Assembly: GCA_038245785.1 (NCBI GenBank)
Contig: JBBRSB010000041.1
Span: forward strand, 1 to 28,698
DNA from: Gloeobacterales cyanobacterium
GTDB lineage: Bacteria > Cyanobacteriota > Cyanobacteriia > Gloeobacterales > PMM-0068
Reading direction: 5' to 3'
DNA: 28,698 nucleotides
Shown here: in pieces, positions 16,774 through 28,698 of the stretch
How the letters are laid out: the number at the start of each line of letters is the position of its first letter
How positions within the stretch are numbered: the stretch's first letter is position 1
Notes under the pieces: model-generated
Told to the model about the DNA's origin: nothing
Database searches by the model: none
Seen by the model: the letters and a program-made list of their open reading frames with translations, nothing else
Translations under genes and position numbers: made by a program

Positions 16774-16846
16774 GCGGAAGTAGCTCAGTTGGTAGAGCAT
16801 CAGCTTCCCAAGCTGAGGGTCGAGGGTTCGAATCCCTTTTTCCGCT
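16774..16846 (+). tRNA. tRNA-Gly (anticodon CCC), CCA end not encoded
   Basis: Cloverleaf folded by hand: acceptor GCGGAAG/TTTCCGC, D-arm GCTC/GAGC, anticodon arm TCAGC-TTCCCAA-GCTGA, T-arm GAGGG-TTCGAAT-CCCTT. Confidence 0.97.
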
Positions 16847-16854
16847 CTGAAAAT

Positions 16855-16888
16855 AAAGCAGTTAGCAAAATTTGTTAACTGCTTTTTT
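16855..16888. terminator. Probably bidirectional terminator between the tRNA and the phage lysis genes
   Basis: AAAGCAGTTAGCAAA / TTTGTTAACTGCTTT hairpin with an A-rich left flank and a T-rich right flank. Confidence 0.8.
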
Positions 16889-16894
16889 CATTTT

Positions 16895-16917
16895 CAACAT
16901 ACAAAGCAACATACAAA
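16895..16917. repeat. 11-bp direct repeat CAACATACAAA x2 (candidate integrase arm-type sites)
   Basis: Perfect copies at 16895-16905 and 16907-16917, about 50 nt from the tRNA 3' end. The function is inferred. Confidence 0.6.
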
Positions 16918-16928
16918 TTGATTTATAA

Positions 16929-17510
16929 TTACCGATAAAACCGGAGTTTCCACCATGTGGAAAAGAGGAAATCTTTATTGAAGGGATTGTAGGCTACCGC
17001 GAAAATATGATCTGTTCTGGTTTGATAGAGCAGTGAGGGTGAGAAAGTAAAATCTATTGGATACAATGAAACTTGAGCGCCAAGGAAGAGCTTTGGACGC
17101 TGAGGTTCAGTGATTGTGGTCGTTTGATGAATGGTTTGTGTGCGGGAATAGAATTTAGATTGAACGTATCCCTGGCATAGTTTATTTTGAAAAACCGTAT
17201 CAGTAAGCGTAATGAGGGCATTGGAATCATTTACCAGGGTGCGCTGATACACGTTTCTTGTAAAGAACTCATGGATAATAGCTGAGGTGTCGATGGGTTG
17301 AGCAAGCATATACCAGTCGCCAGTGTCTCGAAATTCAATATAGGGGACCGGGACGAGGTTGGGATAATACAAAGTGTCATAAATAGTAGTAATGGTTGTT
17401 AACGGAGACGGAACTTCCGGACATTTATGCTTTGGCTTACACATCTGCAAAAACAGAATGACATAAAGCAGGATCAGGATAATTGTATAAGGGATAAACT
17501 TTGGGTTCAT
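16929..17510 (-). CDS. Membrane-anchored phage protein, putative spanin-like lysis accessory
   Basis: N-terminal hydrophobic helix plus Cys (QMC), a Pro/Thr-rich middle and amphipathic C-terminal beta-strands. It is the last gene of the operon and has an ATGA overlap with the endolysin. Confidence 0.55.
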   Translation of the reverse strand: MNPKFIPYTIILILLYVILFLQMCKPKHKCPEVPSPLTTITTIYDTLYYPNLVPVPYIEFRDTGDWYMLAQPIDTSAIIHEFFTRNVYQRTLVNDSNALITLTDTVFQNKLCQGYVQSKFYSRTQTIHQTTTITEPQRPKLFLGAQVSLYPIDFTFSPSLLYQTRTDHIFAVAYNPFNKDFLFSTWWKLRFYR

Positions 17511-17806
17511 TTGGGGTCGTATTCAATGTGAAAGTGGTCGGCTTCAAAAATTACATCGAAGTCGATGGTAAGTGATTGTTTTAATGCTAAAAGCACTTTT
17601 GGAATCTGACTGGCCGTAAAATAGCTGGTGCGCAGGTCGAAGGCATAGCCAGAAGGATGCAGGCTGCCGGCATGGTGAACGGAGTCGTCGAGGGAAGTAA
17701 TGACAAGATCTTGTCCAAACATCCTGTAAACATCCGCTGCAATGAGGATGGCCAAGACTATCTGGGATTTCAGGTCGGCAAGTTTGACGGTGGATTTTAG
17801 TTGCAT
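17507..17806 (-). CDS. Small Zn-peptidase M15-like endolysin
   Basis: SLHPSGYAFD (SxHxxGxAxD) and DHFHIE (HxH) zinc-ligand motifs. Confidence 0.75.
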   Translation of the reverse strand: MQLKSTVKLADLKSQIVLAILIAADVYRMFGQDLVITSLDDSVHHAGSLHPSGYAFDLRTSYFTASQIPKVLLALKQSLTIDFDVIFEADHFHIEYDPK

Positions 17807-17810
17807 GGGA

Positions 17811-18029
17811 TCATTTTTTTGGGAGTCCGGTTACATCACTGTCTTTAGTAAAAGCAAAGCCGATGGTGGCTATGAAAGCTGAAATTGCGCCAAGGGAAGC
17901 ACCAACTTCAGTGAGGGTTGCCTTGCCTGCATATACCAATGCAAAGGAAATGAGCAGGACCAAAGCGCTGAGGTAAGAAACCAGGCTGGTTTTCCAGGAG
18001 GAATTCTTAGGATTTGAGAAGATCTTCAT
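17811..18029 (-). CDS. Putative holin (72 aa, 2 TM helices)
   Basis: From the ATG at 18029: MKIFSNPKNSSWKTSL..., two hydrophobic helices and a charged tail, directly upstream of the endolysin. Confidence 0.6.
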   Translation of the reverse strand: MKIFSNPKNSSWKTSLVSYLSALVLLISFALVYAGKATLTEVGASLGAISAFIATIGFAFTKDSDVTGLPKK

Positions 18030-18285
18030 GATAGTTGAGGTTTTTAAGGCGGTTAGGACAATTAGTGACAAAGCAAACAAGGGGTATAAGTTTTTCAAGC
18101 GTTTCAACACGGTCCTGGAGGTCCTTGTTTTTTGACAGAACCTCATCATACTGCTTTTCAATGAAGGCAATGGCCTTTTCCGTATAGTCGAGTTTTCCGG
18201 CTTTCCGGATATAGCGCAGCGTAAGGAGGGTGGAAATACCTCCACCGGTGATGAAGCTGAGAAGTAATGCGATATATGCGAGCAT
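18007..18285 (-). CDS. Single-TM coiled-coil protein of the lysis module (holin/antiholin-like)
   Basis: N-terminal TM helix, heptad region (YDEVLSKNKDLQDRVETLEK) and a C-terminal CX4CXXR. Confidence 0.55.
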   Translation of the reverse strand: MLAYIALLLSFITGGGISTLLTLRYIRKAGKLDYTEKAIAFIEKQYDEVLSKNKDLQDRVETLEKLIPLVCFVTNCPNRLKNLNYHEDLLKS

Positions 18286-18297
18286 AGGAATAAAATA

Positions 18298-19578
18298 TTA
18301 ACCTATTATAGTCCAGCCTTTATTAATAGCAGTCGACCTTGTACAAGTTGCTGCTCCTGGGCAACCCATAATATTTATTGTCTTGCCAGCAATAGTAGGT
18401 AAATCAATAAAAAGTATATTTAAAGCTGATGCATTTAAACTTGTATAGCTCACATCTACCTGAGGAGAAGAACCAGTAAAGGCGGAACCAGTAGCAAGTA
18501 AACGAATTGAGGTAATCTTAAGCAATGCGCCTGCAGATCCGAATATTCCAAGTTTGGTCAGCTTGGCACCAATTTGGATAGGTGAACTAAAAAAGTCCAT
18601 GTCAGACATAAAAAGATTGAAATCAGACTGTATCGTATTACTGCCAACCTTAGATAAATTGGTAACCGTTGTTAAATTATAACACTTATAAAACATGTAT
18701 TCGCAAAGAGTCATGCCGCTGGAAACCTGGGCTGGAAGTGATACCAATACCAAGGAGAAACAACTTGCAAAAGTTGCCCGTGTTTCGGTTACACTGCCCC
18801 AGGATGAAGGGAATAACATATGGTGAAGTGCAGAACAACCCTGAAATGTTGCATATAGTGAAGTTATTGAACCAAATGAAGTAGGAAATTTAAGTGAGGT
18901 AAGGGAAGAACAATTTGCAAAAGTGAACATAAGCGATGTAACGCCACCCCAAGAGGAAGGAAGGGTAAGTTTACTCAATGAGGTACAACCTGCAAACATA
19001 TTAACGGGATCGGTAATAGCACCCCAGCTTGAATTTGGAAACTGAAAGTCTACTAATGCTGTGCAATTCGCAAGTGCGCTATTGGCACCAGTAGTATTGG
19101 CAAATGTTGGAAAAGTTACCGAACGAAGCATACATGCCTGAGCGCCATTGGCAGAACTATCATAAAATGCACTTTCAATTGTTGTGAGGCCAGTAGTGCC
19201 GAAAACAGCCCATAGAATTGGAATGATCTGCGTACTGGAACAAAAAGTATGACGACGGATTCTGAATCTGGTAATTGTACTAGATGCTCCATAGATACGA
19301 ACTTTCCATGTCTTATAACCTTCGGAACAAGTTACGCCGCCTGAGGAATGTTGATGTGTATAGATTGTATCACTAACCCTTGAAGTTTCTATCATTCCAT
19401 CACCCCAATCAATGGAATAGGTGCCTGATAAGGTATTAACGGAAAAGGAAGTAGCTACGCCGTTGGTTACAAGCAAATGAATTTCATTGTTGGCAACACT
19501 GGAAATGTTAATCCAATCGGCAGGAGGAGCCCAGGAAGAAGATGAAGCCGAAGATGGCAAGTGAAATGAGCCTATCAT
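18298..19578 (-). CDS. Leucine-rich repeat (BspA/DUF285-like) protein, putative virion adhesin
   Basis: About 6 repeats of about 25 aa (FxxCxxLxxLxFPSSWGxVT), PKD-like IDWGDG, N-terminal WAPPADW and C-terminal KGWTI; no signal peptide. Confidence 0.75.
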   Translation of the reverse strand: MIGSFHLPSSASSSSWAPPADWINISSVANNEIHLLVTNGVATSFSVNTLSGTYSIDWGDGMIETSRVSDTIYTHQHSSGGVTCSEGYKTWKVRIYGASSTITRFRIRRHTFCSSTQIIPILWAVFGTTGLTTIESAFYDSSANGAQACMLRSVTFPTFANTTGANSALANCTALVDFQFPNSSWGAITDPVNMFAGCTSLSKLTLPSSWGGVTSLMFTFANCSSLTSLKFPTSFGSITSLYATFQGCSALHHMLFPSSWGSVTETRATFASCFSLVLVSLPAQVSSGMTLCEYMFYKCYNLTTVTNLSKVGSNTIQSDFNLFMSDMDFFSSPIQIGAKLTKLGIFGSAGALLKITSIRLLATGSAFTGSSPQVDVSYTSLNASALNILFIDLPTIAGKTINIMGCPGAATCTRSTAINKGWTIIG

Positions 19579-19907
19579 TATCCGATAATGTTAATGGTGA
19601 TACCAATATTTGAAGCGGGTGTATTGGTGGCATATAATTTTACTGAACCATCACTACTGACTGTTTTTGGTAAAATCTGAGCTGATATGACAGTTGCGAT
19701 ATCTATATTATCAGGAATTACATCAACTATGCTGGTGGATTTAATATTCGCATTTGAAAGATCATACTCATATAAACCAGCAACCAGGTACCAATTCTCA
19801 GATAATAAAACGAGCGAAGAAATTTGCGTTAAACTAATTTCATCGAAATTATCATTCAAAATGGAAATCATGTCCTTATGACCTTCGCGATATGCAATCT
19901 TTTTCAT
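19578..19907 (-). CDS. Small beta-rich virion protein (fibre/decoration-like)
   Basis: N-terminal LNDNFDE motif and a beta-strand-rich domain; TAATG-coupled to the LRR gene. Confidence 0.55.
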   Translation of the reverse strand: MKKIAYREGHKDMISILNDNFDEISLTQISSLVLLSENWYLVAGLYEYDLSNANIKSTSIVDVIPDNIDIATVISAQILPKTVSSDGSVKLYATNTPASNIGITINIIG

Positions 19908-19908
19908 G

Positions 19909-20775
19909 TTATTCGGAGATTAAAAAGCCATTTATGCGAGGTTTGGAATAAAGTACAAATAGTGGAAATTCATCAGTAGATAAATGCTGTTCCAAAATCT
20001 GGCGTTTTACTGTAATGATATTACTTAAATCTTTCAGATCATCAAGGCGTAAAGGAGCAAGTGGAACTATTGCCGATACAGCAGGAGTTTCTGAAAAATA
20101 CTGGTTGTAAAGTAATAATTTGGTACAAAAAGCTAAATATGGCTTTATATAATCGGATAATAATTGTGTATATATAGCAGGATTTAAGAAAATATCATCA
20201 TAAACTACCTGCGTAATAACTGGAATTAAAAACTTTTGTTCTGCAGCAGTAATGATAGAAGGTAAGATGTAAGATTCATCAATTGGTATTATGAATGCCA
20301 ATGAATTTACTTCCCTGGAATCTACAAGCGTGCGGGGATAGTCATAATTTACTGAATTATAAAAATAAGGGAAGGCACCTTTCATCATTTCAGCTAAAAT
20401 AACTTTTCCTTTAGCTTCAATAATATCATCCAATGCTTGTAAATCAGCAGTTAAAATATCCCGTGAAGGTTCTGTAAGCAACGGGAAAGTTGTAAGGGTA
20501 TCGTGTTGGTAAGAATTTTCAGTAATGTATTGACTATAAAGCAAACGTTTAGTTGCAAAGGCAAGGAATGATTTAATAAAGGAATCTATCAAATAGCCAT
20601 ACATCATAGGATTAAGAGCCATATCAATATAACATTGTTCACCCATGATAGGAACCAAATATTTTTCTTCAGCAGCAGCAATAAATTCTAATTTTATATA
20701 AGATTCATCAATGGGTACAATAAATGCCATTGCATTAACTTCAGCAGGAGATACTAACGTAGGATATAATGGCAT
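19909..20775 (-). CDS. Putative head-completion/adaptor protein (DUF6712-like) made of two tandem copies of one domain
   Basis: Lies directly after the portal gene. Two copies of TLVxxxEVNxxAFIxPIDESYI...AAExKxLxP...IKxxLAFxTKxLLYxQY, offset by 143 aa. Confidence 0.6.
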   Translation of the reverse strand: MPLYPTLVSPAEVNAMAFIVPIDESYIKLEFIAAAEEKYLVPIMGEQCYIDMALNPMMYGYLIDSFIKSFLAFATKRLLYSQYITENSYQHDTLTTFPLLTEPSRDILTADLQALDDIIEAKGKVILAEMMKGAFPYFYNSVNYDYPRTLVDSREVNSLAFIIPIDESYILPSIITAAEQKFLIPVITQVVYDDIFLNPAIYTQLLSDYIKPYLAFCTKLLLYNQYFSETPAVSAIVPLAPLRLDDLKDLSNIITVKRQILEQHLSTDEFPLFVLYSKPRINGFLISE

Positions 20776-20776
20776 G

Positions 20777-22024
20777 TTACTGCATATTTATCGGATTGGA
20801 TTGATTGAATGTATTTTTCAACTGCATGACCAGCAATTTTTGCGTAGGATCATTGGGGTCAAAAGGCAGACCAGCATCCCTGCGGGCTTCCCAGATAAAT
20901 TTTAATGGATTAATACGCTGAATAGGTGGCTCATTGATAAAATAAAGCTGTTGGGTCGGCAGTGAAAAATGGTCCAGGATCTGATCAAAGTGTCGAAGGA
21001 AATACGATTGAAAGGGGCTGATAATCGTATTTATAGCTATTTCATGCTCATTGATAATCCTGTTGGAATCAAAGCCGTTTATTTCTCCGGAATAAGGCGT
21101 AAGAGAGCGGAACCAGTTATGAATTGTGATGATGGACAGTTCGGATTGTTTGTGCAGATCCATCCAGTTCCCTTCCTCATTCTTCTTGAATTCGATAAAC
21201 TGCGCCTGTTGTGAAGTCTGCCCGGGGGAAAGATCAGCAAGGTATTGCGTTAAGATATCACCGGATTTCTCACCGTCCGTTCCTTTAAGTTTAGCAAATT
21301 CAGCATCGAGGGCCAGTGCATCCGTTTCATCATTGATGCCGGGAATGATCAATAACCCAGGAGCCGTAAATCCATTTTCAAGCCTGTTCTGGTTCCATAA
21401 ATTTGTAAGCCCTGAGATGACAATGGAGCGGACACCGGCATAATAGGAAGGCAAGCCATAATAGTAAAATTCAGGCTCGTAATCCTTGAAATGATAGGCA
21501 GAATGCAGAAGTCCATCAGGGCCTTTACGGAAATCCGGAAACATTGGAAGAGCTGTGAGATTAGGATCATTCTTTCCCTGAAAGTCAGCCCAGGAAGGAT
21601 GAATGAGAACATCATTGGCTATTGCCGAGAGCCTGCATTTGCTCGAATCGATATGATACAAGTAAGTAAAAGTCCTTTTGGGATTGGTAATGATTTCCAT
21701 GTAGGCATTACCAATCGTAAGATAATCCTGGAAGATATAGCTGAATACCGTATCAAGCGATTGATGCGTATTGCTTGGCTGCAGAATAAGCTTCTTTAAA
21801 AGAGGGTTAACCGTCGTTATACCTTTGCCTGAAAAGTAAGTAGCTTTTGAATTTAAGATAGCACGATGCACCGGAACTTCACGGGCCAACTGGTTTAGTT
21901 GGGTGGGCAAAAGATTATCCACACCGAATGGAATAAAGATCTCATAATTTGACCGCAAGGCCATAAAATCAGACCGATCCAGGTTTAAAAGCGGGGTGTA
22001 ATTATGGGTGGAAAATGCTTTCAT
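20777..22024 (-). CDS. Phage portal protein
   Basis: 415 aa; FIPFGVDNLLP, HRAILNSKA..GKG, DYLTIGNAYMEI, YYGLPSY and ENGFTAPG match the pattern of Bacteroidota phage portals. Confidence 0.8.
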   Translation of the reverse strand: MKAFSTHNYTPLLNLDRSDFMALRSNYEIFIPFGVDNLLPTQLNQLAREVPVHRAILNSKATYFSGKGITTVNPLLKKLILQPSNTHQSLDTVFSYIFQDYLTIGNAYMEIITNPKRTFTYLYHIDSSKCRLSAIANDVLIHPSWADFQGKNDPNLTALPMFPDFRKGPDGLLHSAYHFKDYEPEFYYYGLPSYYAGVRSIVISGLTNLWNQNRLENGFTAPGLLIIPGINDETDALALDAEFAKLKGTDGEKSGDILTQYLADLSPGQTSQQAQFIEFKKNEEGNWMDLHKQSELSIITIHNWFRSLTPYSGEINGFDSNRIINEHEIAINTIISPFQSYFLRHFDQILDHFSLPTQQLYFINEPPIQRINPLKFIWEARRDAGLPFDPNDPTQKLLVMQLKNTFNQSNPINMQ

Positions 22025-22083
22025 TTATCGGGGACGTGGGACGATGGACAGGGGGGCAAGTGAAAAATAAAAAATGAAAAATG

Positions 22084-22127
22084 AGAAAAGCCTGAACTGA
22101 AACGCAATAGGTATTCAGTCCAGGCCT
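22084..22127 (-). terminator. Intrinsic terminator after the major capsid gene
   Basis: On the minus strand, GCCTGGACTGAA...TTCAGTTCAGGC is followed by TTTTCTCATTTTT. Confidence 0.75.
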
Positions 22128-22136
22128 GGAGCAAGA

Positions 22137-23486
22137 TTAGTCGACGAAGCCAGCGAGAACTAAAAGTTCTTTGTGGAAATAAGCAGTCTGGGCCTTATAT
22201 TGAACCCGGTACCTGCGCATCTGAGCTTCCTGATTGTACCAGGTTTCAATCATCTCGGAATCGCTGGTTCCATCCGTGGCAAACAACAGGTTTTTAGAAG
22301 TGGTCAACAGCGCACGGTGAGGATTGACGCCTGAATTAGCCGTGGCAATCCATTTATCCCAATCGTTGCGAACAATGACAGGATATCCTTCATAGGAAGG
22401 AACCTTTACACCATTCATCATTACCGTATCACCCAGGATTGACTGGCGATCTTTCAGGGAATGGACCAGGTTGCGCCACATCGAAGCCGTGAGCATAAAG
22501 ACCAGATCGAAATCATGCATTTCCGGCGTAGCTGCATCGAGCATCGATTCCAGGATTCCATCAGCCTCATTGGCTGCAAGCCCGGAAGCATTTACAGCAG
22601 CAACAGCACCAGAATTGGCAGTTGAGCCGGTGCCGGTGACAGTTGAGGTTGCGGTAAAGCTTTGTCCTTTAATCCTGCTGACGATCTTAATCGCTCCAGC
22701 GGATGGGTTGGTCACGATAACACCATTGTATGGGCAGCGTGATTCAACAAGCGCCTTGTTAGTGGTCAGCCAGTTGTTGCAGGTAACAATTGCAGAAGTG
22801 GCATAAGCCTGGGAATAAGTGGTGCCATTGATCACAATATTCAAAAATGTATCGGTACCAGCCGTATAGGTAATGACCTGTTCCTGAGCTTTTTTAACAG
22901 CAGATGAAGCAATGGGAACATGCTGCGTTGAAGGAATGGTGGCAGAGATGAGGTCGGTAATGAAATTCGTAAAGAATCCGGTATAGCCGGAATAGTTGGT
23001 ATCAATAGTAGCATTGGGAATACCAGCCGTAAAAGTTTCAGCAACAGGATTGGCAAAGAACATCTGACGGATGAGATCGGACTGACAAGCTTTTGCAATC
23101 AGCGGAAGCATGATTTTATTCCATACATCAGGAGATTTCATCTGCTCCACATCATCCTGGGCATATCCGGATGCAAGAAGTTCCTGAACGATTGAACCAT
23201 AGAAAGCACGTGCATTCTGTTCAAACTCAACCGCCATGGGTTTAACGGTAATATCCTGGGTTGTTAAAGCAAAGGATCCGGAAGGAGTGAAACCCGCTGA
23301 GGTTTTGGGTTTGGTAAGAAAGGAAGGAGCAGAAATGCGGTTAAGCAATTCTGAGCCTTTTATATCCGTGCGCACAGTGATGAGTCCGCGAATCTCATCA
23401 GGCATAAACATGGGCTGAATGAAGTATTCATCAATCGCCTGGCGTTTGAAAATGGGGGAGATGGATTGAGAAAAAATATTAGACAT
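22137..23486 (-). CDS. Putative major capsid protein (HK97-like) with an inserted beta-rich domain
   Basis: 449 aa, lies after the protease/scaffold gene and is followed by a terminator. GYTGFF, FMLTASMWRNL, YEGYPV and KNLLFATD segments fit a capsid-like layout. Confidence 0.72.
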   Translation of the reverse strand: MSNIFSQSISPIFKRQAIDEYFIQPMFMPDEIRGLITVRTDIKGSELLNRISAPSFLTKPKTSAGFTPSGSFALTTQDITVKPMAVEFEQNARAFYGSIVQELLASGYAQDDVEQMKSPDVWNKIMLPLIAKACQSDLIRQMFFANPVAETFTAGIPNATIDTNYSGYTGFFTNFITDLISATIPSTQHVPIASSAVKKAQEQVITYTAGTDTFLNIVINGTTYSQAYATSAIVTCNNWLTTNKALVESRCPYNGVIVTNPSAGAIKIVSRIKGQSFTATSTVTGTGSTANSGAVAAVNASGLAANEADGILESMLDAATPEMHDFDLVFMLTASMWRNLVHSLKDRQSILGDTVMMNGVKVPSYEGYPVIVRNDWDKWIATANSGVNPHRALLTTSKNLLFATDGTSDSEMIETWYNQEAQMRRYRVQYKAQTAYFHKELLVLAGFVD

Positions 23487-23509
23487 GGCTGGGAAATTTT
23501 AAGGGTGAG

Positions 23510-24535
23510 TTATTTAATTTTTAACCTGCGTTTGGCATCGAGTGGCAAGGCTTCCAGAAGTTCCTTACCCGTATCATCGACGGGCTTTTCAGGATTGATT
23601 GAAACCAAAGGATCAGTGACATTGAGCGGAATAGAAGGACGCGCCGAGAGCTGTTCGGTAAGTTCCAGAATACGCGCATTTGCAGCAGCAAGTTCGTGCG
23701 TAAGATCATCAACGGATACGAGTGAAAGCTGATGTTCGGCATTGAGGATATCAAATGCTTCAGAGGATTCAACGGACAATGGTTCGGAAGACTCAACAGC
23801 CGGAGCATCTATAGGCTTAACAGCAGCCGAGAATGCGTCTATGAAAGAGGCAAAATTTTCTTTGATTTTTTCAGATAAGGTCATTTTAGAATGATTTAGG
23901 TAAGCATTAAAAAATTCTATCACATTTTCGGGCTTGGAAAAGATGAGTTCAGCGATCTCAGGATTGGCATCCAGGAATTCAGTGGCAATGCCGGGAAAAG
24001 TTGTGGCAGAAAACAAACCATCAGTGGCAGCAGGTTCATCGACGATATCAGTACCACGGAGATCCAGTAACCTGAAATATTCCTTATTTACTTCTTTACC
24101 GTCGACATCTTCCTTCTGGAAATGAGAATCAGCGGATTGAAAATAAATGGAGGCACCAAACATGTCAGGATTTTTCTCAGCCATATCCAGAACATAAGAA
24201 TAGAGATCACCGGAAGGGCTATTCCTGGCAGTGTCGTCGAGGTATAGATCAGCTTTGACCGAATTTCCGGAGTAGGAATAATTCTTAAAGCGTCCCAGGT
24301 AAGATCCCAGAGCAGTGCTGCACATATTCGGGTGCCCGAACCTGGCCTTGATCCCGGCAGGTTTGGCAGCGGCATTGTCAACCAGTTGCAGCAGGAAATC
24401 CTTATCAATGAAAGCTCCGTGACCTTTTGCAAGGCCCACCTGAGCAATGGTAACACCTTGAATGATTCCATTTAGCCGGTCGATTTGTCCGGCAGGAGCT
24501 GAAAAGATTGTTGGAGCGGAGAGGTAGCGGTTCAT
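23510..24535 (-). CDS. Putative prohead protease fused to a scaffold domain
   Basis: RFGHP, ADLYL, FGASI and DIVDEPAA motifs followed by an acidic, coiled-coil C-terminus. The ATG at 24535 overlaps the upstream stop (TGATG). Confidence 0.72.
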   Translation of the reverse strand: MNRYLSAPTIFSAPAGQIDRLNGIIQGVTIAQVGLAKGHGAFIDKDFLLQLVDNAAAKPAGIKARFGHPNMCSTALGSYLGRFKNYSYSGNSVKADLYLDDTARNSPSGDLYSYVLDMAEKNPDMFGASIYFQSADSHFQKEDVDGKEVNKEYFRLLDLRGTDIVDEPAATDGLFSATTFPGIATEFLDANPEIAELIFSKPENVIEFFNAYLNHSKMTLSEKIKENFASFIDAFSAAVKPIDAPAVESSEPLSVESSEAFDILNAEHQLSLVSVDDLTHELAAANARILELTEQLSARPSIPLNVTDPLVSINPEKPVDDTGKELLEALPLDAKRRLKIK

Positions 24536-24648
24536 CACTTAGCGATTTTTGTAAGTTTTGAACCAGCGTTTTGAGAACCGCCAGATATTGGTTTCGGTGC
24601 CGTAACCTTAACACTGATCTGTGAAGTTTTTGTTATTGATTTTGCCAT
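24535..24648 (-). CDS. Unannotated 37-aa basic peptide, first gene of the head operon
   Basis: Hand translation: MAKSITKTSQISVKVTAPKPISGGSQNAGSKLTKIAK*. It starts 25 nt after a -7 box and its TGA overlaps the protease ATG. Confidence 0.55.
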   Translation of the reverse strand: MAKSITKTSQISVKVTAPKPISGGSQNAGSKLTKIAK

Positions 24649-24673
24649 TTTGAGGTAGATATAATTTACATAA

Positions 24674-24681
24674 CAAAATTA
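24674..24681 (-). promoter_or_regulatory. -7 promoter box (TAATTTTG) for the head/lysis operon
   Basis: Exact TAnnTTTG match on the minus strand; the region is AT-rich, so a chance match is possible. Confidence 0.5.
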
Positions 24682-24713
24682 CATTTACCTAAAGCAATAC
24701 TTTAGTAAAATGT
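24681..24713. promoter_or_regulatory. Imperfect palindrome, candidate operator
   Basis: ACATTTACCTAAAG-CAATA-CTTTAGTAAAATGT; the arms match at 12 of 14 positions. Confidence 0.45.
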
Positions 24714-24756
24714 GGCAAAACATTTGTATATCAGATAAATATATCTTAAATTGACG

Positions 24757-24764
24757 TAAATTTG
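24757..24764 (+). promoter_or_regulatory. -7 promoter box (TAAATTTG) for the regulator-terminase operon
   Basis: Exact TAnnTTTG match 23 nt before the ATG at 24788. Confidence 0.55.
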
Positions 24765-24787
24765 TTAAATTAAATACAGGCAGGAAA

Positions 24788-25024
24788 ATGGAGATAACCA
24801 AGGATTTGATCTTAGAGGAAATAAAGGATCTTGCCGGAATAGATGCAGGGTTTTTACTGGAAAATGGGCTGTTAACGACAGAACATGCCAGGAAATGGGT
24901 GGTGAAGAAAAAGTATTTCCAGTTGGCCAGAACGGGGAGGACCTATACCGATATAAAAAATGAGCTGAGTGACTGTTACGGCTTGTCGGTGAGCACGATT
25001 GAGAAGATGGTTTACAGGAAATAG
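24788..25024 (+). CDS. Small helix-turn-helix protein (Mor/C-activator-like C-terminus)
   Basis: TYTDIKNELSDCYGLSVSTIEKMVY has an HTH pattern. Confidence 0.6.
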   Translation: MEITKDLILEEIKDLAGIDAGFLLENGLLTTEHARKWVVKKKYFQLARTGRTYTDIKNELSDCYGLSVSTIEKMVYRK

Positions 25025-25062
25025 AAATATTCATTCTAAAAATAGGAAGGAATAGGAACAAT

Positions 25063-25368
25063 ATGGAAACGAAAGCAGCAAAACCTCAGCTGTTCAAACC
25101 AGGTGAAGGTGGCAGGCCAAAAGGCGTAAAGAACAAAATCACACGTGAAATTCAAGAACGGATTGAGTGGGTCCTGGAACTGCTGGATGATCGTCTGGAG
25201 GAAGATATTGACAAGCTGAAAGCTCCTGAAAGAATTAAACTCTGGTCGGACCTGCAGGAATTCATCCGTCCGAAGCTGCAGCGGGTTAACCTGGAAGTAG
25301 GAGGGGAGGACAAAGCAATAACCAAGATCACTTTTGAAGTAGTGGGCGCTGATGGAAAAGAAGTGTAG
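25063..25368 (+). CDS. Terminase small subunit (putative)
   Basis: FKPGEGGRPKGVKNK motif and a helical body; overlaps the terL start. Confidence 0.75.
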   Translation: METKAAKPQLFKPGEGGRPKGVKNKITREIQERIEWVLELLDDRLEEDIDKLKAPERIKLWSDLQEFIRPKLQRVNLEVGGEDKAITKITFEVVGADGKEV

Positions 25369-26530
25369 AGTTTCAGTCGTATTCCGGAAAAACTTTGAAG
25401 CTGCAACAAAGATTGTGGTTAACCAGGGATCGAGCAGGTCGGGCAAGACTTACTCGATCCTTCAGCTTTTTATCCTGGTCAAGGCATTTGAGGAAACGAA
25501 TACCGTATTTACGATTGTCAGAAAAACGATGCCGTCGTTGAAAGCTTCAGCGATGCGGGACTTTTTTGAGATACTGAAGAATGAGGATCTTTATGACGAA
25601 CGATACCATAATAAAACGGAAAGCACTTACCTGTTGAACGGAAACCTGTTTGAGTTCGTCAGCCTGGACCAACCACAGAAAAAGAGAGGTGCCAAAAGAA
25701 CCTATCTTTTTATCAACGAGGCAAATGAGCTGAACCTGGAGGACTGGATACAGTTGAGCATCAGGACCGAGAAGCAGATATTCATTGACTATAATCCTTC
25801 GATGGAAGAGCACTGGATCTATGACCTGGTGATTCCCAGAAAAGACTGTACGTTCATTCAATCCACCTACCTGGATAATATTGAGTTCCTGCCGGCCGAG
25901 GTAGTGAAGGAAATAGAACTGCTGAAAGATGTGGATGAGAATTACTGGCGGGTTTATGGTCTTGGTCTCCCAGGACAAATCAGGGGGATGGTATTTACAA
26001 ACTGGGACCAGGTGGATGAATTCCCAGGTGATTGCAAATGGGTGACCTACGGGATGGATTTTGGGTTTACGAACGATCCTACTGCTTTGATCAAATTGGG
26101 CCTCTCAGGCGGGGAAATATGGCTTGACGAGCTAATATACAACAGGGGATTAACGAACCAGGACATTGCCAAATGGATGGGTGAGTTGGGGCTGAGGTGG
26201 GTCGATGAGGTTATCGCGGATAACCAGCCGAAATGCATTTATGAAATTAAGAAGGAAGGATTTAATGTTGTGGCAACCTATAAAGGAAAAGACAGCATCC
26301 TGGCCGGGCTGGATATTATGCAGCGGTACAAGATCCATATCACTAAGCGTTCGGGGAACCTAATCAGGGAGTTTAAGAACTATAAATGGAAAGAGGATCA
26401 GGCTGGCAAAGCCACGAATGAGCCGATTGATAAATTCAACCATGGCATTGATGCTGTGCGGTATGCCTTGATGGCAAAAATCATGGTGAATAAAAAGAGA
26501 ACAATGAAAATCGGGAGATTGAGTTGGTGA
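25352..26530 (+). CDS. Terminase large subunit, PBSX/SPP1-like family
   Basis: Walker A QGSSRSGKT, Walker B FINEANE, DYNP, and nuclease motifs GMDFGFTNDPTAL and NHGIDAVRY. Confidence 0.95.
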   Translation: MEKKCRVSVVFRKNFEAATKIVVNQGSSRSGKTYSILQLFILVKAFEETNTVFTIVRKTMPSLKASAMRDFFEILKNEDLYDERYHNKTESTYLLNGNLFEFVSLDQPQKKRGAKRTYLFINEANELNLEDWIQLSIRTEKQIFIDYNPSMEEHWIYDLVIPRKDCTFIQSTYLDNIEFLPAEVVKEIELLKDVDENYWRVYGLGLPGQIRGMVFTNWDQVDEFPGDCKWVTYGMDFGFTNDPTALIKLGLSGGEIWLDELIYNRGLTNQDIAKWMGELGLRWVDEVIADNQPKCIYEIKKEGFNVVATYKGKDSILAGLDIMQRYKIHITKRSGNLIREFKNYKWKEDQAGKATNEPIDKFNHGIDAVRYALMAKIMVNKKRTMKIGRLSW

Positions 26531-26790: not shown

Positions 26791-26957
26791 TTATAGCAAC
26801 TCTCAATCACACCTAAGATGCAGCAAGGTGAGCGGAGATGGCTAAGATCATGGGGAATAAGAAGAGAATGATGCCGAATGGAAGGTTGAGTTGGTGAACT
26901 TTACTGAATTTGCATGTGGGTTTGGATCTCATATATATATCCACACAGGCCATGGCG

Positions 26958-27800
26958 CTATGGCAGTTTTGGGTGTAGTTTATCCATTTCTTTAATCAGC
27001 TCATTGAATCCATAAATCTTTTCCATATTGACATTTGCCTGTAATGCAGCACCTGTAAGATCAGGATACATTGTAAAAGCATCTATTTCTGATTCATGCA
27101 GATGAAGGAGAATCTCACTTGTTAGATTCTCATCTATAATGAACTTTTCAAGATAATCAGATTTATCAACAGATGACAAATAATCTTCAATATTATTATG
27201 TTCTAATATTTTTAAATAAGTAAAATGTGCTGATTGAGAGTTCATTCTAGATCCTATTGGGTCAATAGTGCGAATAAATTTGAATTCATCATCATTGAAT
27301 AAATTACCCCAGCAGTTTAGCTTATATATGGCGACTGGATAATTATCTATTGAAAAACCCATTTTAAATTCAAGTGATTTATAAATGTCTTCAAAAGCAA
27401 AAAATAAAGCCTTTAGTGGATTAATGGTCCAATCTAGGTAAGGTGTGGTTAAACCGTAATGTCGACCTAAGATCCACGCATCGATATCACTAATATTATT
27501 GTATTTAGAGCTAATTTTATAAAGGTTACTTTTAAATTGAGTCAGTATTATCTGACATTCATTATTATACCAAGTCGGACCATTGGCATGTTTCAAATTA
27601 ATAATTTTGTCTCCTTCAGGTGTCTTACCTATATATTCCGTAAATCGCTCCATTTTTGACCGCAATTTCCAAGAAATATCCCGTTGTCCTCGAAATAATT
27701 TAAAATGACAGCATTCGATGCCATTAGAAATATTCATAGAATTCGACTCAAATAATTTTTGCCTAAGCAGTGGCCAGGTTTCAATCCTGTGTTCTTTCAT
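26958..27800 (-). CDS. FRG-domain protein (AT-rich cargo gene)
   Basis: LFRGQ, RHYGLTTPYLDWTINPLKALFFA and RMNSQSAHF motifs, with C-terminal MYPDLTG. Confidence 0.9.
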   Translation of the reverse strand: MKEHRIETWPLLRQKLFESNSMNISNGIECCHFKLFRGQRDISWKLRSKMERFTEYIGKTPEGDKIINLKHANGPTWYNNECQIILTQFKSNLYKISSKYNNISDIDAWILGRHYGLTTPYLDWTINPLKALFFAFEDIYKSLEFKMGFSIDNYPVAIYKLNCWGNLFNDDEFKFIRTIDPIGSRMNSQSAHFTYLKILEHNNIEDYLSSVDKSDYLEKFIIDENLTSEILLHLHESEIDAFTMYPDLTGAALQANVNMEKIYGFNELIKEMDKLHPKLP

Positions 27801-27994: not shown

Positions 27995-28698
27995 AAAACG
28001 GCTAGGCGTGGGGGGGGGTGAGCAGCTCATGGAGGTGAGGGAGGAACGACCGAATCCGACATGTGTTGCGGTGGGGCTGTGAAAAGCTTGGGGATGGTGG
28101 AATGAAATGAAGTGTAGCGGAATGGAGTGGAGCTGGAGCGAAATGAATGTAGCTGCTGGTGAAGCCCTCTGAGCTTTAACTTTGTAGCGGAGCGAATGGA
28201 GCGTAGCGGAATGAAGCGAAGCGCAAAAGTTGAAGCGGGGCGTGTGGCTGTGAGACGCCAAAAATGGAGGTTGTGCGTCAGCTGGCGCCGAGCAGACACG
28301 AACCTGCAGCTGCTGAATGAAGTGGAAGCGTAATGTAATGTAGCGAAGCGTAATGCAATGAAACCATAAACAAGGTTTGCAGCAGCTTGGATTGTACTAC
28401 TAAATTATCAAAATGGCTGAAGCGCGAAAGCTGACGTCGAGACGGCAAGTTAGGCGGATTTTGTGTCTAAATCTTCAAAAGATGTTGCAAAATGCTGAAT
28501 CGGTTGGTCTACGTGCGCGAGGGGCTTTGCGAAGCCATTGTGCCTGGCGCTTTTGAGCAGGTGCATGAAGCTGATGGGATGTGGGGGGAATGCTCCTGCG
28601 GCGCCTTTTGGCACTATGGCGTAGCAAAGAAACAAAGGGAACTCCTGGACATTTACTTGTATCACTATCATTCTGATCTCGTCGGCTCGTTACAATCA
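27995..28698 (+). other. Purine-skewed, structured non-coding region with GC-GNA-GC mini-hairpins and GAATG-like pentamers
   Basis: GCGGAGC 28187; GCGTAGC 28201 and 28619; GCGAAGC 28216, 28343 and 28529; several enclosing stems; only low-complexity shadow ORFs. Confidence 0.65.

Follow-up and report, generated by a model that had tools for sequence, protein, structure and literature searches.

According to the available text of two reports (PMC10085698; 10.1101/2025.02.11.637232), phage-inducible chromosomal islands that form capsids (cf-PICIs) have been reported from Proteobacteria and Firmicutes, have a median length of 14 kb and contain a head-tail connector and an HK97-derived packaging module, and a holin is a forbidden gene in their model. 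The locus described here was found in a stretch of 28698 nt (hereafter the window), which is the entire contig JBBRSB010000041.1 (C41) of the assembly GCA_038245785.1 (G000). It contains a head, packaging and lysis module next to a tRNA-Gly gene and has many relatives, cited below by L numbers for loci and G numbers for genomes. Like the cf-PICIs of those reports, the family comprises integrated islands with the small and large terminase subunits (TerS and TerL), protease, capsid, portal and adaptor genes, defence cargo, no tail and, probably, an integrase and a primase of their own. Unlike them, it combines genes for lysis and for fibres with a TerL of the PBSX type, shows no connector and has an adaptor without the hairpin motif, spans of 28–41 kb between attachment (att) sites and, apparently, a separate origin among Bacteroidota phages. 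We estimate a probability of about 0.5 that these elements are helper-dependent, self-lysing, capsid-forming satellites of Bacteroidales, inserted at tRNA genes and derived from a tailed temperate phage minus its tail-shaft genes. They likely spread as tail-less particles that need outside help for cell entry.

The family has its own capsid, portal, protease, TerS and TerL genes (protease and TerS were assigned by position and weak matches), as well as an adaptor and no tail genes. It departs from the cf-PICI model in the presence of two holin-like, endolysin-fold and spanin-like genes, in the connector and in the ancestry of packaging. No HNH family was found among the scanned open reading frames (ORFs) of the elements. 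An integrase, a regulator and a primase were seen within one island in both islands of G001, where they may belong to a tandem neighbour (see below); the corresponding side of the window is not visible.

The Bacteroides phage BS-TP3 (PQ571276.1) and uncultured tailed phages related to it share with the family a homologous capsid protein, the portal family, a DUF6712 adaptor, a 78-aa helix-turn-helix (HTH) protein and the portal–adaptor–fibres–lysis order. However, they contain a 170–220-aa gene after the capsid gene, a tape-measure tail block after TerL and a glycine in the adaptor hairpin, and their TerS and TerL genes are not divergent. Neither the gene in the tube position nor the tape-measure block was found in the family. 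A 12.7-kb terminase–capsid–holin–endolysin cluster from mouse-gut Butyricicoccaceae also combines head, packaging and lysis genes without a tail and, in the accessible part of the source, was likened by its authors to capsid-forming satellites (10.64898/2026.07.08.737213); it is a single sighting in another phylum (Firmicutes) and is likened to the present family by description alone. The Mycolicibacterium EPIPs are likewise helper-dependent satellites with some virion genes of their own, but they are 11 kb long, encode a stopper and a tape measure and have no holins according to the available text (PMC12822802).

A literature search that did not extend to most subscription papers and supplements revealed no description of a Bacteroidota capsid-forming satellite or of DUF6712, and "Bacteroid-" is absent from the available texts of PMC10085698 and 10.1101/2025.02.11.637232. 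The family would represent capsid-forming satellite-like elements in a phylum without a described case, with an origin of their own; given this origin and the traceable ancestors, the exact gene losses can be read. New here are a form with genes for fibres and lysis, a sister group of tailed phages and the change in the adaptor. Since satellite finders treat lysis and fibre genes as marks of a prophage, such elements would be filtered out or called defective.

Comparison with tailed relatives

The capsid searches retrieved 24 genome loci, 8 loci from viral collections and at least 77 metagenome loci, that is, 109 distinct loci overall, with capsid identities of 51–84%. TerL, HTH, protease, capsid and portal genes were found jointly in 50 of the 109 loci and in the window, many of the remaining loci being short. 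The order past the portal gene is adaptor, variable slot and lysis genes. The gap between the capsid and portal genes has a median of 73 bp and is shorter than 300 bp in 80 of 83 loci; the three loci with a larger gap contain fibre-like or repeat-derived ORFs inside it. The layout for which a search of Bacteroidota genomes had been proposed recurs across the 109 related loci.

Tailed relatives were reached by portal and protease searches, within the best 80 of 234 and the best 80 of 244 matches, respectively. In these relatives (L172–L324) and in BS-TP3, the order is TerL, tape-measure tail block, HTH, protease, capsid, 170–220-aa gene, portal, DUF6712 adaptor, fibres and lysis genes. PHROG tape-measure matches were obtained with E values of 4.5e-13 and 2e-9, and many of the loci have a gene of tape-measure size upstream. 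An ORF of 150–260 aa occupies the capsid–portal gap in 59 of 59 tailed loci showing both genes, many of which are near-identical and do not count as 59 independent cases. Its place and size suggest a tail tube protein; no name was obtained for it from PHROG, Pfam or PDB.

Since the tailed sisters carry tail genes both after the capsid gene and after TerL, the family has lost both ancestral tail blocks, at two separate sites. These comparisons point to descent from a tailed temperate phage of Bacteroidota, independently of cf-PICIs. A preliminary description of the window, made from its sequence, had emphasized that there is no room for a tail between the portal and lysis genes. The statement holds but has no diagnostic value, since tail-shaft genes never lie there in the tailed relatives; none showed the placement that would have turned the locus into a deletion remnant. 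The tail-less state itself was borne out by the family-wide layout and by att-bounded copies without a tail-shaft gene, which do not resemble a one-off deletion. No tail operon lies within three att-bounded relatives, the far end of the window being out of view.

Decaying prophages carried along on genomic islands would leave frameshifted or partial copies and relics of the TerL 3' end, both of which occur. We regard this explanation as very unlikely: the same two-site loss extends across the family, the ORFs are full-length, the ratio of nonsynonymous to synonymous substitution rates (dN/dS) is far below 1, and new insertions are repeated.

Adaptor and search for delivery genes

The adaptor was identified by an atlas value of 0.94 and by HHalign (95% to BS-TP3 gp7, that is, DUF6712). 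The model of a single adaptor domain had a predicted local distance difference test score (pLDDT) of 87, and its six best matches were all phage neck or adaptor rings with Z scores of 6.8–7.9, which is middling for a helical protein; Foldseek against PDB gave no match at E ≤ 0.001. In phage SPP1, the adaptor C-terminus binds the portal and a barrel of inner loops seats the stopper, and this barrel is absent in the short-tailed T7 and possibly P22, as stated in the available text of PMC9701221. The glycine of the C-terminal motif is conserved in all 51 tailed adaptors and in 49 of the 51 from the family. In contrast, the glycine of the loop (hairpin) was found in 51 of 51 tailed adaptors and in 1 of 51 family members. 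The main clade has a shorter loop, and almost nothing of it is left in L063 and L110. In a subclade with adaptors of 158–162 aa, a glycine lies one or two columns later, ahead of a long insert, and an altered hairpin may survive there. By its position, the loop probably corresponds to the hairpin of SPP1.

No other conserved ORF that could encode a stopper or connector was found in the family, and L004, L005, L011 and L110 have the adaptor alone between the portal gene and the tRNA. The loss of the hairpin glycine and the lack of a stopper gene argue against docking of the ancestral long tail or of a tail in the classic cf-PICI manner. The borrowing of helper tails in that manner is therefore doubtful. 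Other delivery genes were sought with a PHROG scan of representative ORFs, which covered 78 of 108 on the downstream side, 42 of 95 on the upstream side and 8 further ones. Its tail-category matches were fibre-type segments with one exception, a 90-residue "major tail protein" segment in a 1329-aa ORF past the lysis genes of L088. No conserved large ORF follows TerL in the 35 loci showing at least 3 kb there, the BS-TP3 tail-region proteins had no match in any family locus, and neither side of the module showed a conserved gene that might encode a DNA conduit, a plug or an ejection protein. The loss of the docking motif raises the question of how a particle with portal and terminase but without stopper and tail would keep and deliver its DNA.

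These features allow for the possibility that heads are made but do not serve as the vehicle of spread, acting instead, to the benefit of host or island, as decoys, in anti-phage interference or in DNA release at lysis, while the island moves by conjugative mobilisation or transduction. The lost hairpin and missing stopper would agree with this, as would the persistence of islands that have only the terminase, together with an integrase and the small genes that flank it elsewhere, and the common defence cargo. However, TerL, portal and fibre genes alike evolve under purifying selection, no relaxase family was found in 125 scanned ORFs, and the diversified domains of receptor-binding type suggest that attachment of particles matters. 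This explanation is unlikely, although it deserves to be kept in mind.

Fibre and lysis genes

The variable slot was found to contain head-fibre, YadA, beta-roll, S74-chaperone, propeller or leucine-rich repeat (LRR) domains, and in at least nine loci the adaptor itself is fused to C-terminal adhesin-like domains. The LRR adhesin pointed out in the preliminary description is indeed present, as one of many interchangeable proteins of this slot. In L054 (8132-10664) and L059, a DUF5122 propeller protein occupies the slot, and the DUF6734-like gene after it may encode a particle-modifying enzyme. The endolysin slot of the relatives is also interchangeable (GH108, lysozyme or amidase), and a PF05105 holin occurs in relatives. 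The lysis cassette had been considered unusual; at least one lysis-type gene was found in 14 of 18 loci with a visible tRNA (the window included, with two near-duplicate pairs among the 18). A reverse transcriptase gene is located just past the lysis end in the element of one subclade (L080:19452-20732).

A bolder interpretation is that these are head-only bacterial viruses of the HK97 type, which lost tube, tape measure, stopper and docking barrel and yet integrate, replicate, package, show swappable adhesins on neck or head, lyse and reinfect tail-free. Such a helper-independent virion would consist of a DNA-filled head, a neck ring and fibres and would enter without a tail, for instance through uptake machinery of the host or vesicles. 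The life-cycle genes are complete but for the tail (integrase, primase, packaging, fibres, lysis), adaptor–adhesin fusions occur in at least nine loci, the tail-docking motif is lost and no resident helper was found. Against this stand the lack of a conserved candidate for DNA conduit, plug or ejection, the four loci without fibre and lysis genes, and the tail-based delivery of HK97-type prokaryotic viruses described in the available text of PMC13669383. We consider the helper-independent virion improbable, and the head-only lineage as a whole equally so. If the latter existed, it would transport genes for defence and metal resistance among Bacteroidales of freshwater and sediment.

Complete islands, mobility and selection

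Two copies in the closed chromosome of G001 each lie between repeats that match a tRNA 3' end, with 45 of 45 nt identical at 41.1 kb and 23 of 23 nt at 37.8 kb. A third att-bounded copy of about 27.6 kb in G005 has a repeat of about 86% identity, a frameshifted integrase and cargo. In both G001 islands, the repeats enclose an integrase, HTH_17 and a primase (D5 or DUF3987), along with cargo for restriction, Abi or metals. Pfam analysis of 125 ORFs from six such stretches gave integrases, HTH_17, primase-helicases of the D5 and DUF3987 families and cargo for restriction, Abi and metal efflux. Families of a tube, a sheath, a tape measure, a baseplate or a relaxase were absent from them. In tRNA-Ser copies, the integrase gene abuts the lysis end, and in L049/L050, primase genes lie beside TerL. 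How the islands spread is of consequence to their hosts, because restriction, Abi and heavy-metal genes are part of the cargo. The 41-kb island (L027:15416 to L029:16653) encodes type I restriction, Abi_2, a resistance–nodulation–division (RND) efflux set and a heavy-metal P-type ATPase, together with a 1315-aa ORF without a Pfam or PHROG match in the 919 residues scanned.

Insertions were found at tRNA-Asn, Arg, Ser, Leu and Gly genes. The capsid gene occurs in 10 of 45 genomes of the family to which G001 belongs, in up to four copies, and in 2 of 400 other genomes sampled from the order. The four copies of one genome are scattered across the capsid tree, and L001, the capsid sister of the window, has a TerL from another clade, which indicates a swap (FastTree trees with midpoint rooting and no clade test). 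Gene transfer agents (GTAs) have a headful terminase and head and lysis genes, and they are fixed, single-copy and tailed, without att sites or an integrase. The family has the first three of these in common with them, TerL being presumably of the headful type by its family, and some loci lack an integrase in the visible stretch. A GTA packaging random host DNA is, however, slightly less probable even than prophage decay: the distribution is patchy and multi-copy, the elements are att-bounded at many sites and carried by a minority in the source run, and there is no delivery tail. Accordingly, of the two options in the preliminary description, the capsid-forming satellite of Bacteroidota inserted at a tRNA was retained, whereas the GTA-like particle was not.

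Median dN/dS values were 0.05 for capsid, 0.06 for TerL and 0.12 for portal, protease and adaptor (25–47 of 260 sampled pairs usable), with the reservation, which counts against our interpretation, that most dS values were saturated (228 of 260 capsid pairs dropped) and the pairs are non-independent. For lysis and fibre genes, values of 0.07–0.36 were obtained (1–108 pairs each). Judged from these ratios, purifying selection acts on the genes for head, fibres and lysis. Also observed were headless islands in which TerS/TerL are accompanied by the same small neighbouring genes (L160:18809-19981 with L161:965-2515; L162:247-7183; L158:18963-L159:804); they are either decayed copies or satellites of the head-forming islands.

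Host and insertion site of the window

C41 is a tetranucleotide outlier, with a distance of 0.27 to its own bin (median 0.07 for 60 contigs) versus 0.16 to the Bacteroidales loci, and 23 of the 24 genome loci found in the capsid search are labelled as Bacteroidota. The other examined contigs of G000 appear cyanobacterial, judging from their ORFs. By these sequence comparisons, C41 is Bacteroidales DNA mis-binned into a genome of another phylum, and the far end of the element is therefore unreadable from G000. For the same reason, the listed relatives of G000 were dropped as a comparison set of the wrong lineage; the capsid gene was found in 0 of 60 of them, which were surveyed for sheath genes too. 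C124 of G000, with a TerL fragment and a transposase-like ORF, may be a second stray contig.

The left junction of the element is the 3' end of tRNA-Gly, in agreement with the integration first proposed, whereas its end had been placed at 26530 and the element continues past this point, the contig stopping at 28698, 2.2 kb beyond TerL. Extension of the contig to the right, suggested as a check, had nothing to build on: the window is already the whole contig, and no end overlap, att copy or continuation was found in G000. In the single public run containing C41, which is probably its source, flank contigs had a depth of about 92 and element contigs of 12–13, with the drop at tRNA-Gly, and two contigs diverge from the window sequence at 16847. 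The drop and the branching agree with an insertion right at the end of the tRNA that is present in a minority, and nothing pointed to induction; contig depth is not equal to the share of cells. A related TerL allele at 25934-26217 (28 differences in 284 nt) was present at a depth of 66, so other family members outnumber this copy in the sample.

Proposed life cycle and search for helpers

For the helper-dependent satellite, the following cycle can be proposed. Upon induction, the integrase would excise the island and the primase/helicase would copy its DNA, after which the HTH protein would switch on the divergent head and terminase units. Protease, capsid and portal would form proheads, TerS/TerL would fill them by the headful mechanism, and an adaptor ring would sit on the portal via its conserved C-terminus. 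Surface attachment would come from the fibre or LRR proteins of the variable slot, which are often adaptor fusions, and holin, endolysin and spanin would release tail-less particles. Entry, the weakest step, would use helper parts, probably another neck or co-entry with a helper rather than the ancestral stopper and long tail. MiniFlayer and Phanie, which encode capsids and attach to helpers for co-entry according to the available text of PMC12822802, are a possible model.

Several observations weigh against this interpretation. No helper was found: the tape-measure family PF10145 occurred in 0 of 5 genomes and the profile of the middle gene had no match in any of 10 genomes with head genes, among them a closed one. 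Delivery genes may have escaped the profiles, because the presumed tube gene itself is unnamed by Pfam, PHROG and PDB, so that their absence is judged from synteny. Given the lost hairpin and missing stopper, retention of DNA in the head and docking of a helper part have no evident basis. Four of the 18 loci with a visible tRNA have only the adaptor and no fibre or lysis genes. Complete islands share just a block of about 11 kb, with weak 11- and 12-nt tRNA-like matches (E 0.76 and 0.19) near its edge, and the integrase and primase may therefore be those of a tandem neighbour. Decayed copies exist, and three genomes have a terminase without a head, one with a stop codon. In the window, neither the far end nor an integrase or att copy was found before the contig end at 28698, and the element is known here from its genes.

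The phrog_21217 tape measure was found in 0 of 45 genomes, in a search without a positive control. Headless injection-system tails were considered as donors and rejected: sheath genes were present in 10 of 10 head-bearing genomes but also in 20 of 35 others, including 15 of 18 others of at least 4.2 Mb (kin being non-independent), and because they are so common in non-carriers, no association with heads can be claimed. The injection-system-type context was confirmed by reading in four genomes. Headless contractile tail loci include L132:1086-19604, L134, L135 and L137, and a sheath gene occurs in 30 of 45 genomes of that Bacteroidales family.

Gene content of the window

The features of the window are listed in Table 1. 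All ORFs named in the preliminary description are present and open, and its gaps of 12 nt or less from portal to lysis were measured as 1, 1, -1, 12, -23, 4 and -4 nt; the capsid–portal and protease–capsid gaps are 112 and 23 nt. The roles were largely upheld, with the corrections that TerS/TerL are on the plus strand, divergent from the head operon, that the 78-aa HTH gene had been passed over, and that the second holin-like gene, given as a 144-aa ORF, encodes 72 aa (17811-18029).

Table 1. Features in the window and the evidence for their assignment.
Feature	Position	Strand	Evidence or remark
tRNA-Gly(ccc)	16774..16847	+	integration target; left element junction at its 3' end
Stem-loop, 14 bp, T runs, terminator-like	16855..16885		between tRNA and lysis genes
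Spanin-like, 193 aa, predicted N-terminal membrane helix	16929..17510	-	hydropathy; last lysis gene; homologues in L001, L063
Zn-peptidase, 99 aa, Hedgehog/DD-peptidase fold, likely endolysin	17507..17806	-	invariant H50, D57, H91, H93, E95
Holin-like, 72 aa, two predicted membrane helices	17811..18029	-	hydropathy and position; L001 homologue 76% identical
Holin/antiholin-like, 92 aa, one predicted membrane helix	18007..18285	-	hydropathy; 13 loci; median dN/dS 0.07
BspA-type LRR protein, 426 aa, variable fibre/adhesin slot	18298..19578	-	PF13306 (LRR_5), E 1e-14
Putative fibre-slot protein, 109 aa	19578..19907	-	role from position; homologues in L001, L053
Adaptor, 288 aa, tandem DUF6712-like head-completion domains, tail-side hairpin motif lost	19909..20775	-	
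Portal protein	20777..22024	-	phrog_11226, E 8e-19
Major capsid protein with inserted Ig-like domain (residues ~198-300)	22137..23486	-	
Likely prohead protease/scaffold	23510..24538	-	precedes capsid gene; homologues fill protease slot in tailed relatives
Divergent intergenic region, likely control region	24539..24787		partly conserved in relatives, 70-82% identity
HTH protein, 78 aa, possible late-gene regulator	24788..25024	+	75 loci
Likely TerS	25063..25368	+	position; weak phrog_8771 and DUF5681 matches; 61 loci
TerL, PBSX/SPP1 type	25352..26530	+	TIGR01547 127 bits vs cut-off 105; PF04466/PF17288 above cut-off
Degenerate second copy of TerL 3' end	26793..26898	+	
FRG-domain cargo gene, low GC (0.31-0.36), variable slot after TerL	26958..27800	-	PF08867, E 1.9e-16
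Non-coding segment	28119..28357		81% identical to same position in L001; shows element running toward contig end

The capsid assignment is based on a weak match to phrog_1623 (E 3.5e-6), on HHalign (96% to the annotated BS-TP3 capsid gp3) and on capsid families among the atlas neighbours; the PDB sequence search was empty. The model of the whole capsid protein (pLDDT 49), built on a shallow alignment, was too poor to show an HK97 fold, and only the inserted domain matched structures. This insert (22587-22895) was well predicted as Ig-like, with matches (Z up to 11.2) to sheath, nozzle and crAss auxiliary domains, and may serve as a decoration integral to the capsid surface or as a docking site for fibres. 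The protease/scaffold had no match in Pfam, PHROG or PDB. The HTH protein showed weak similarity to the "Mor domain" of BS-TP3 gp61 (HHalign 68%, E 4.6e-5).

The 99-aa peptidase matched profiles of Hedgehog N domains (E 2.5e-5), whereas the spanin-like protein had no family match in the profile scans. Of the two proteins first described as fibre- or adhesin-like, the LRR protein (dN/dS 0.36 versus L001) was supported by its Pfam match and the 109-aa protein had no family match; homology of the latter to BS-TP3 gp9 was considered, and the comparison gave none. Eight terminator-like sites were found versus 9.4 expected by chance, so that position is the sole support for the one at 16855..16885, and the promoter scan was uninformative for Bacteroidota. 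At 28090-28420, no folding signal was detected (z -0.59).

Degenerate copies of the TerL 3' end were also found beside cargo in L035 (31-136, 4655-4753 and 6135-6212) and L042 (7255-7426), and six extra copies in the G005 stretch. Their recurrence suggests repeated gain of cargo at a hotspot right after TerL. In addition, the non-coding segment 26552-26730 is also located past the lysis genes of L001 (10493-10680, 74% identity), as a small mobile repeat.

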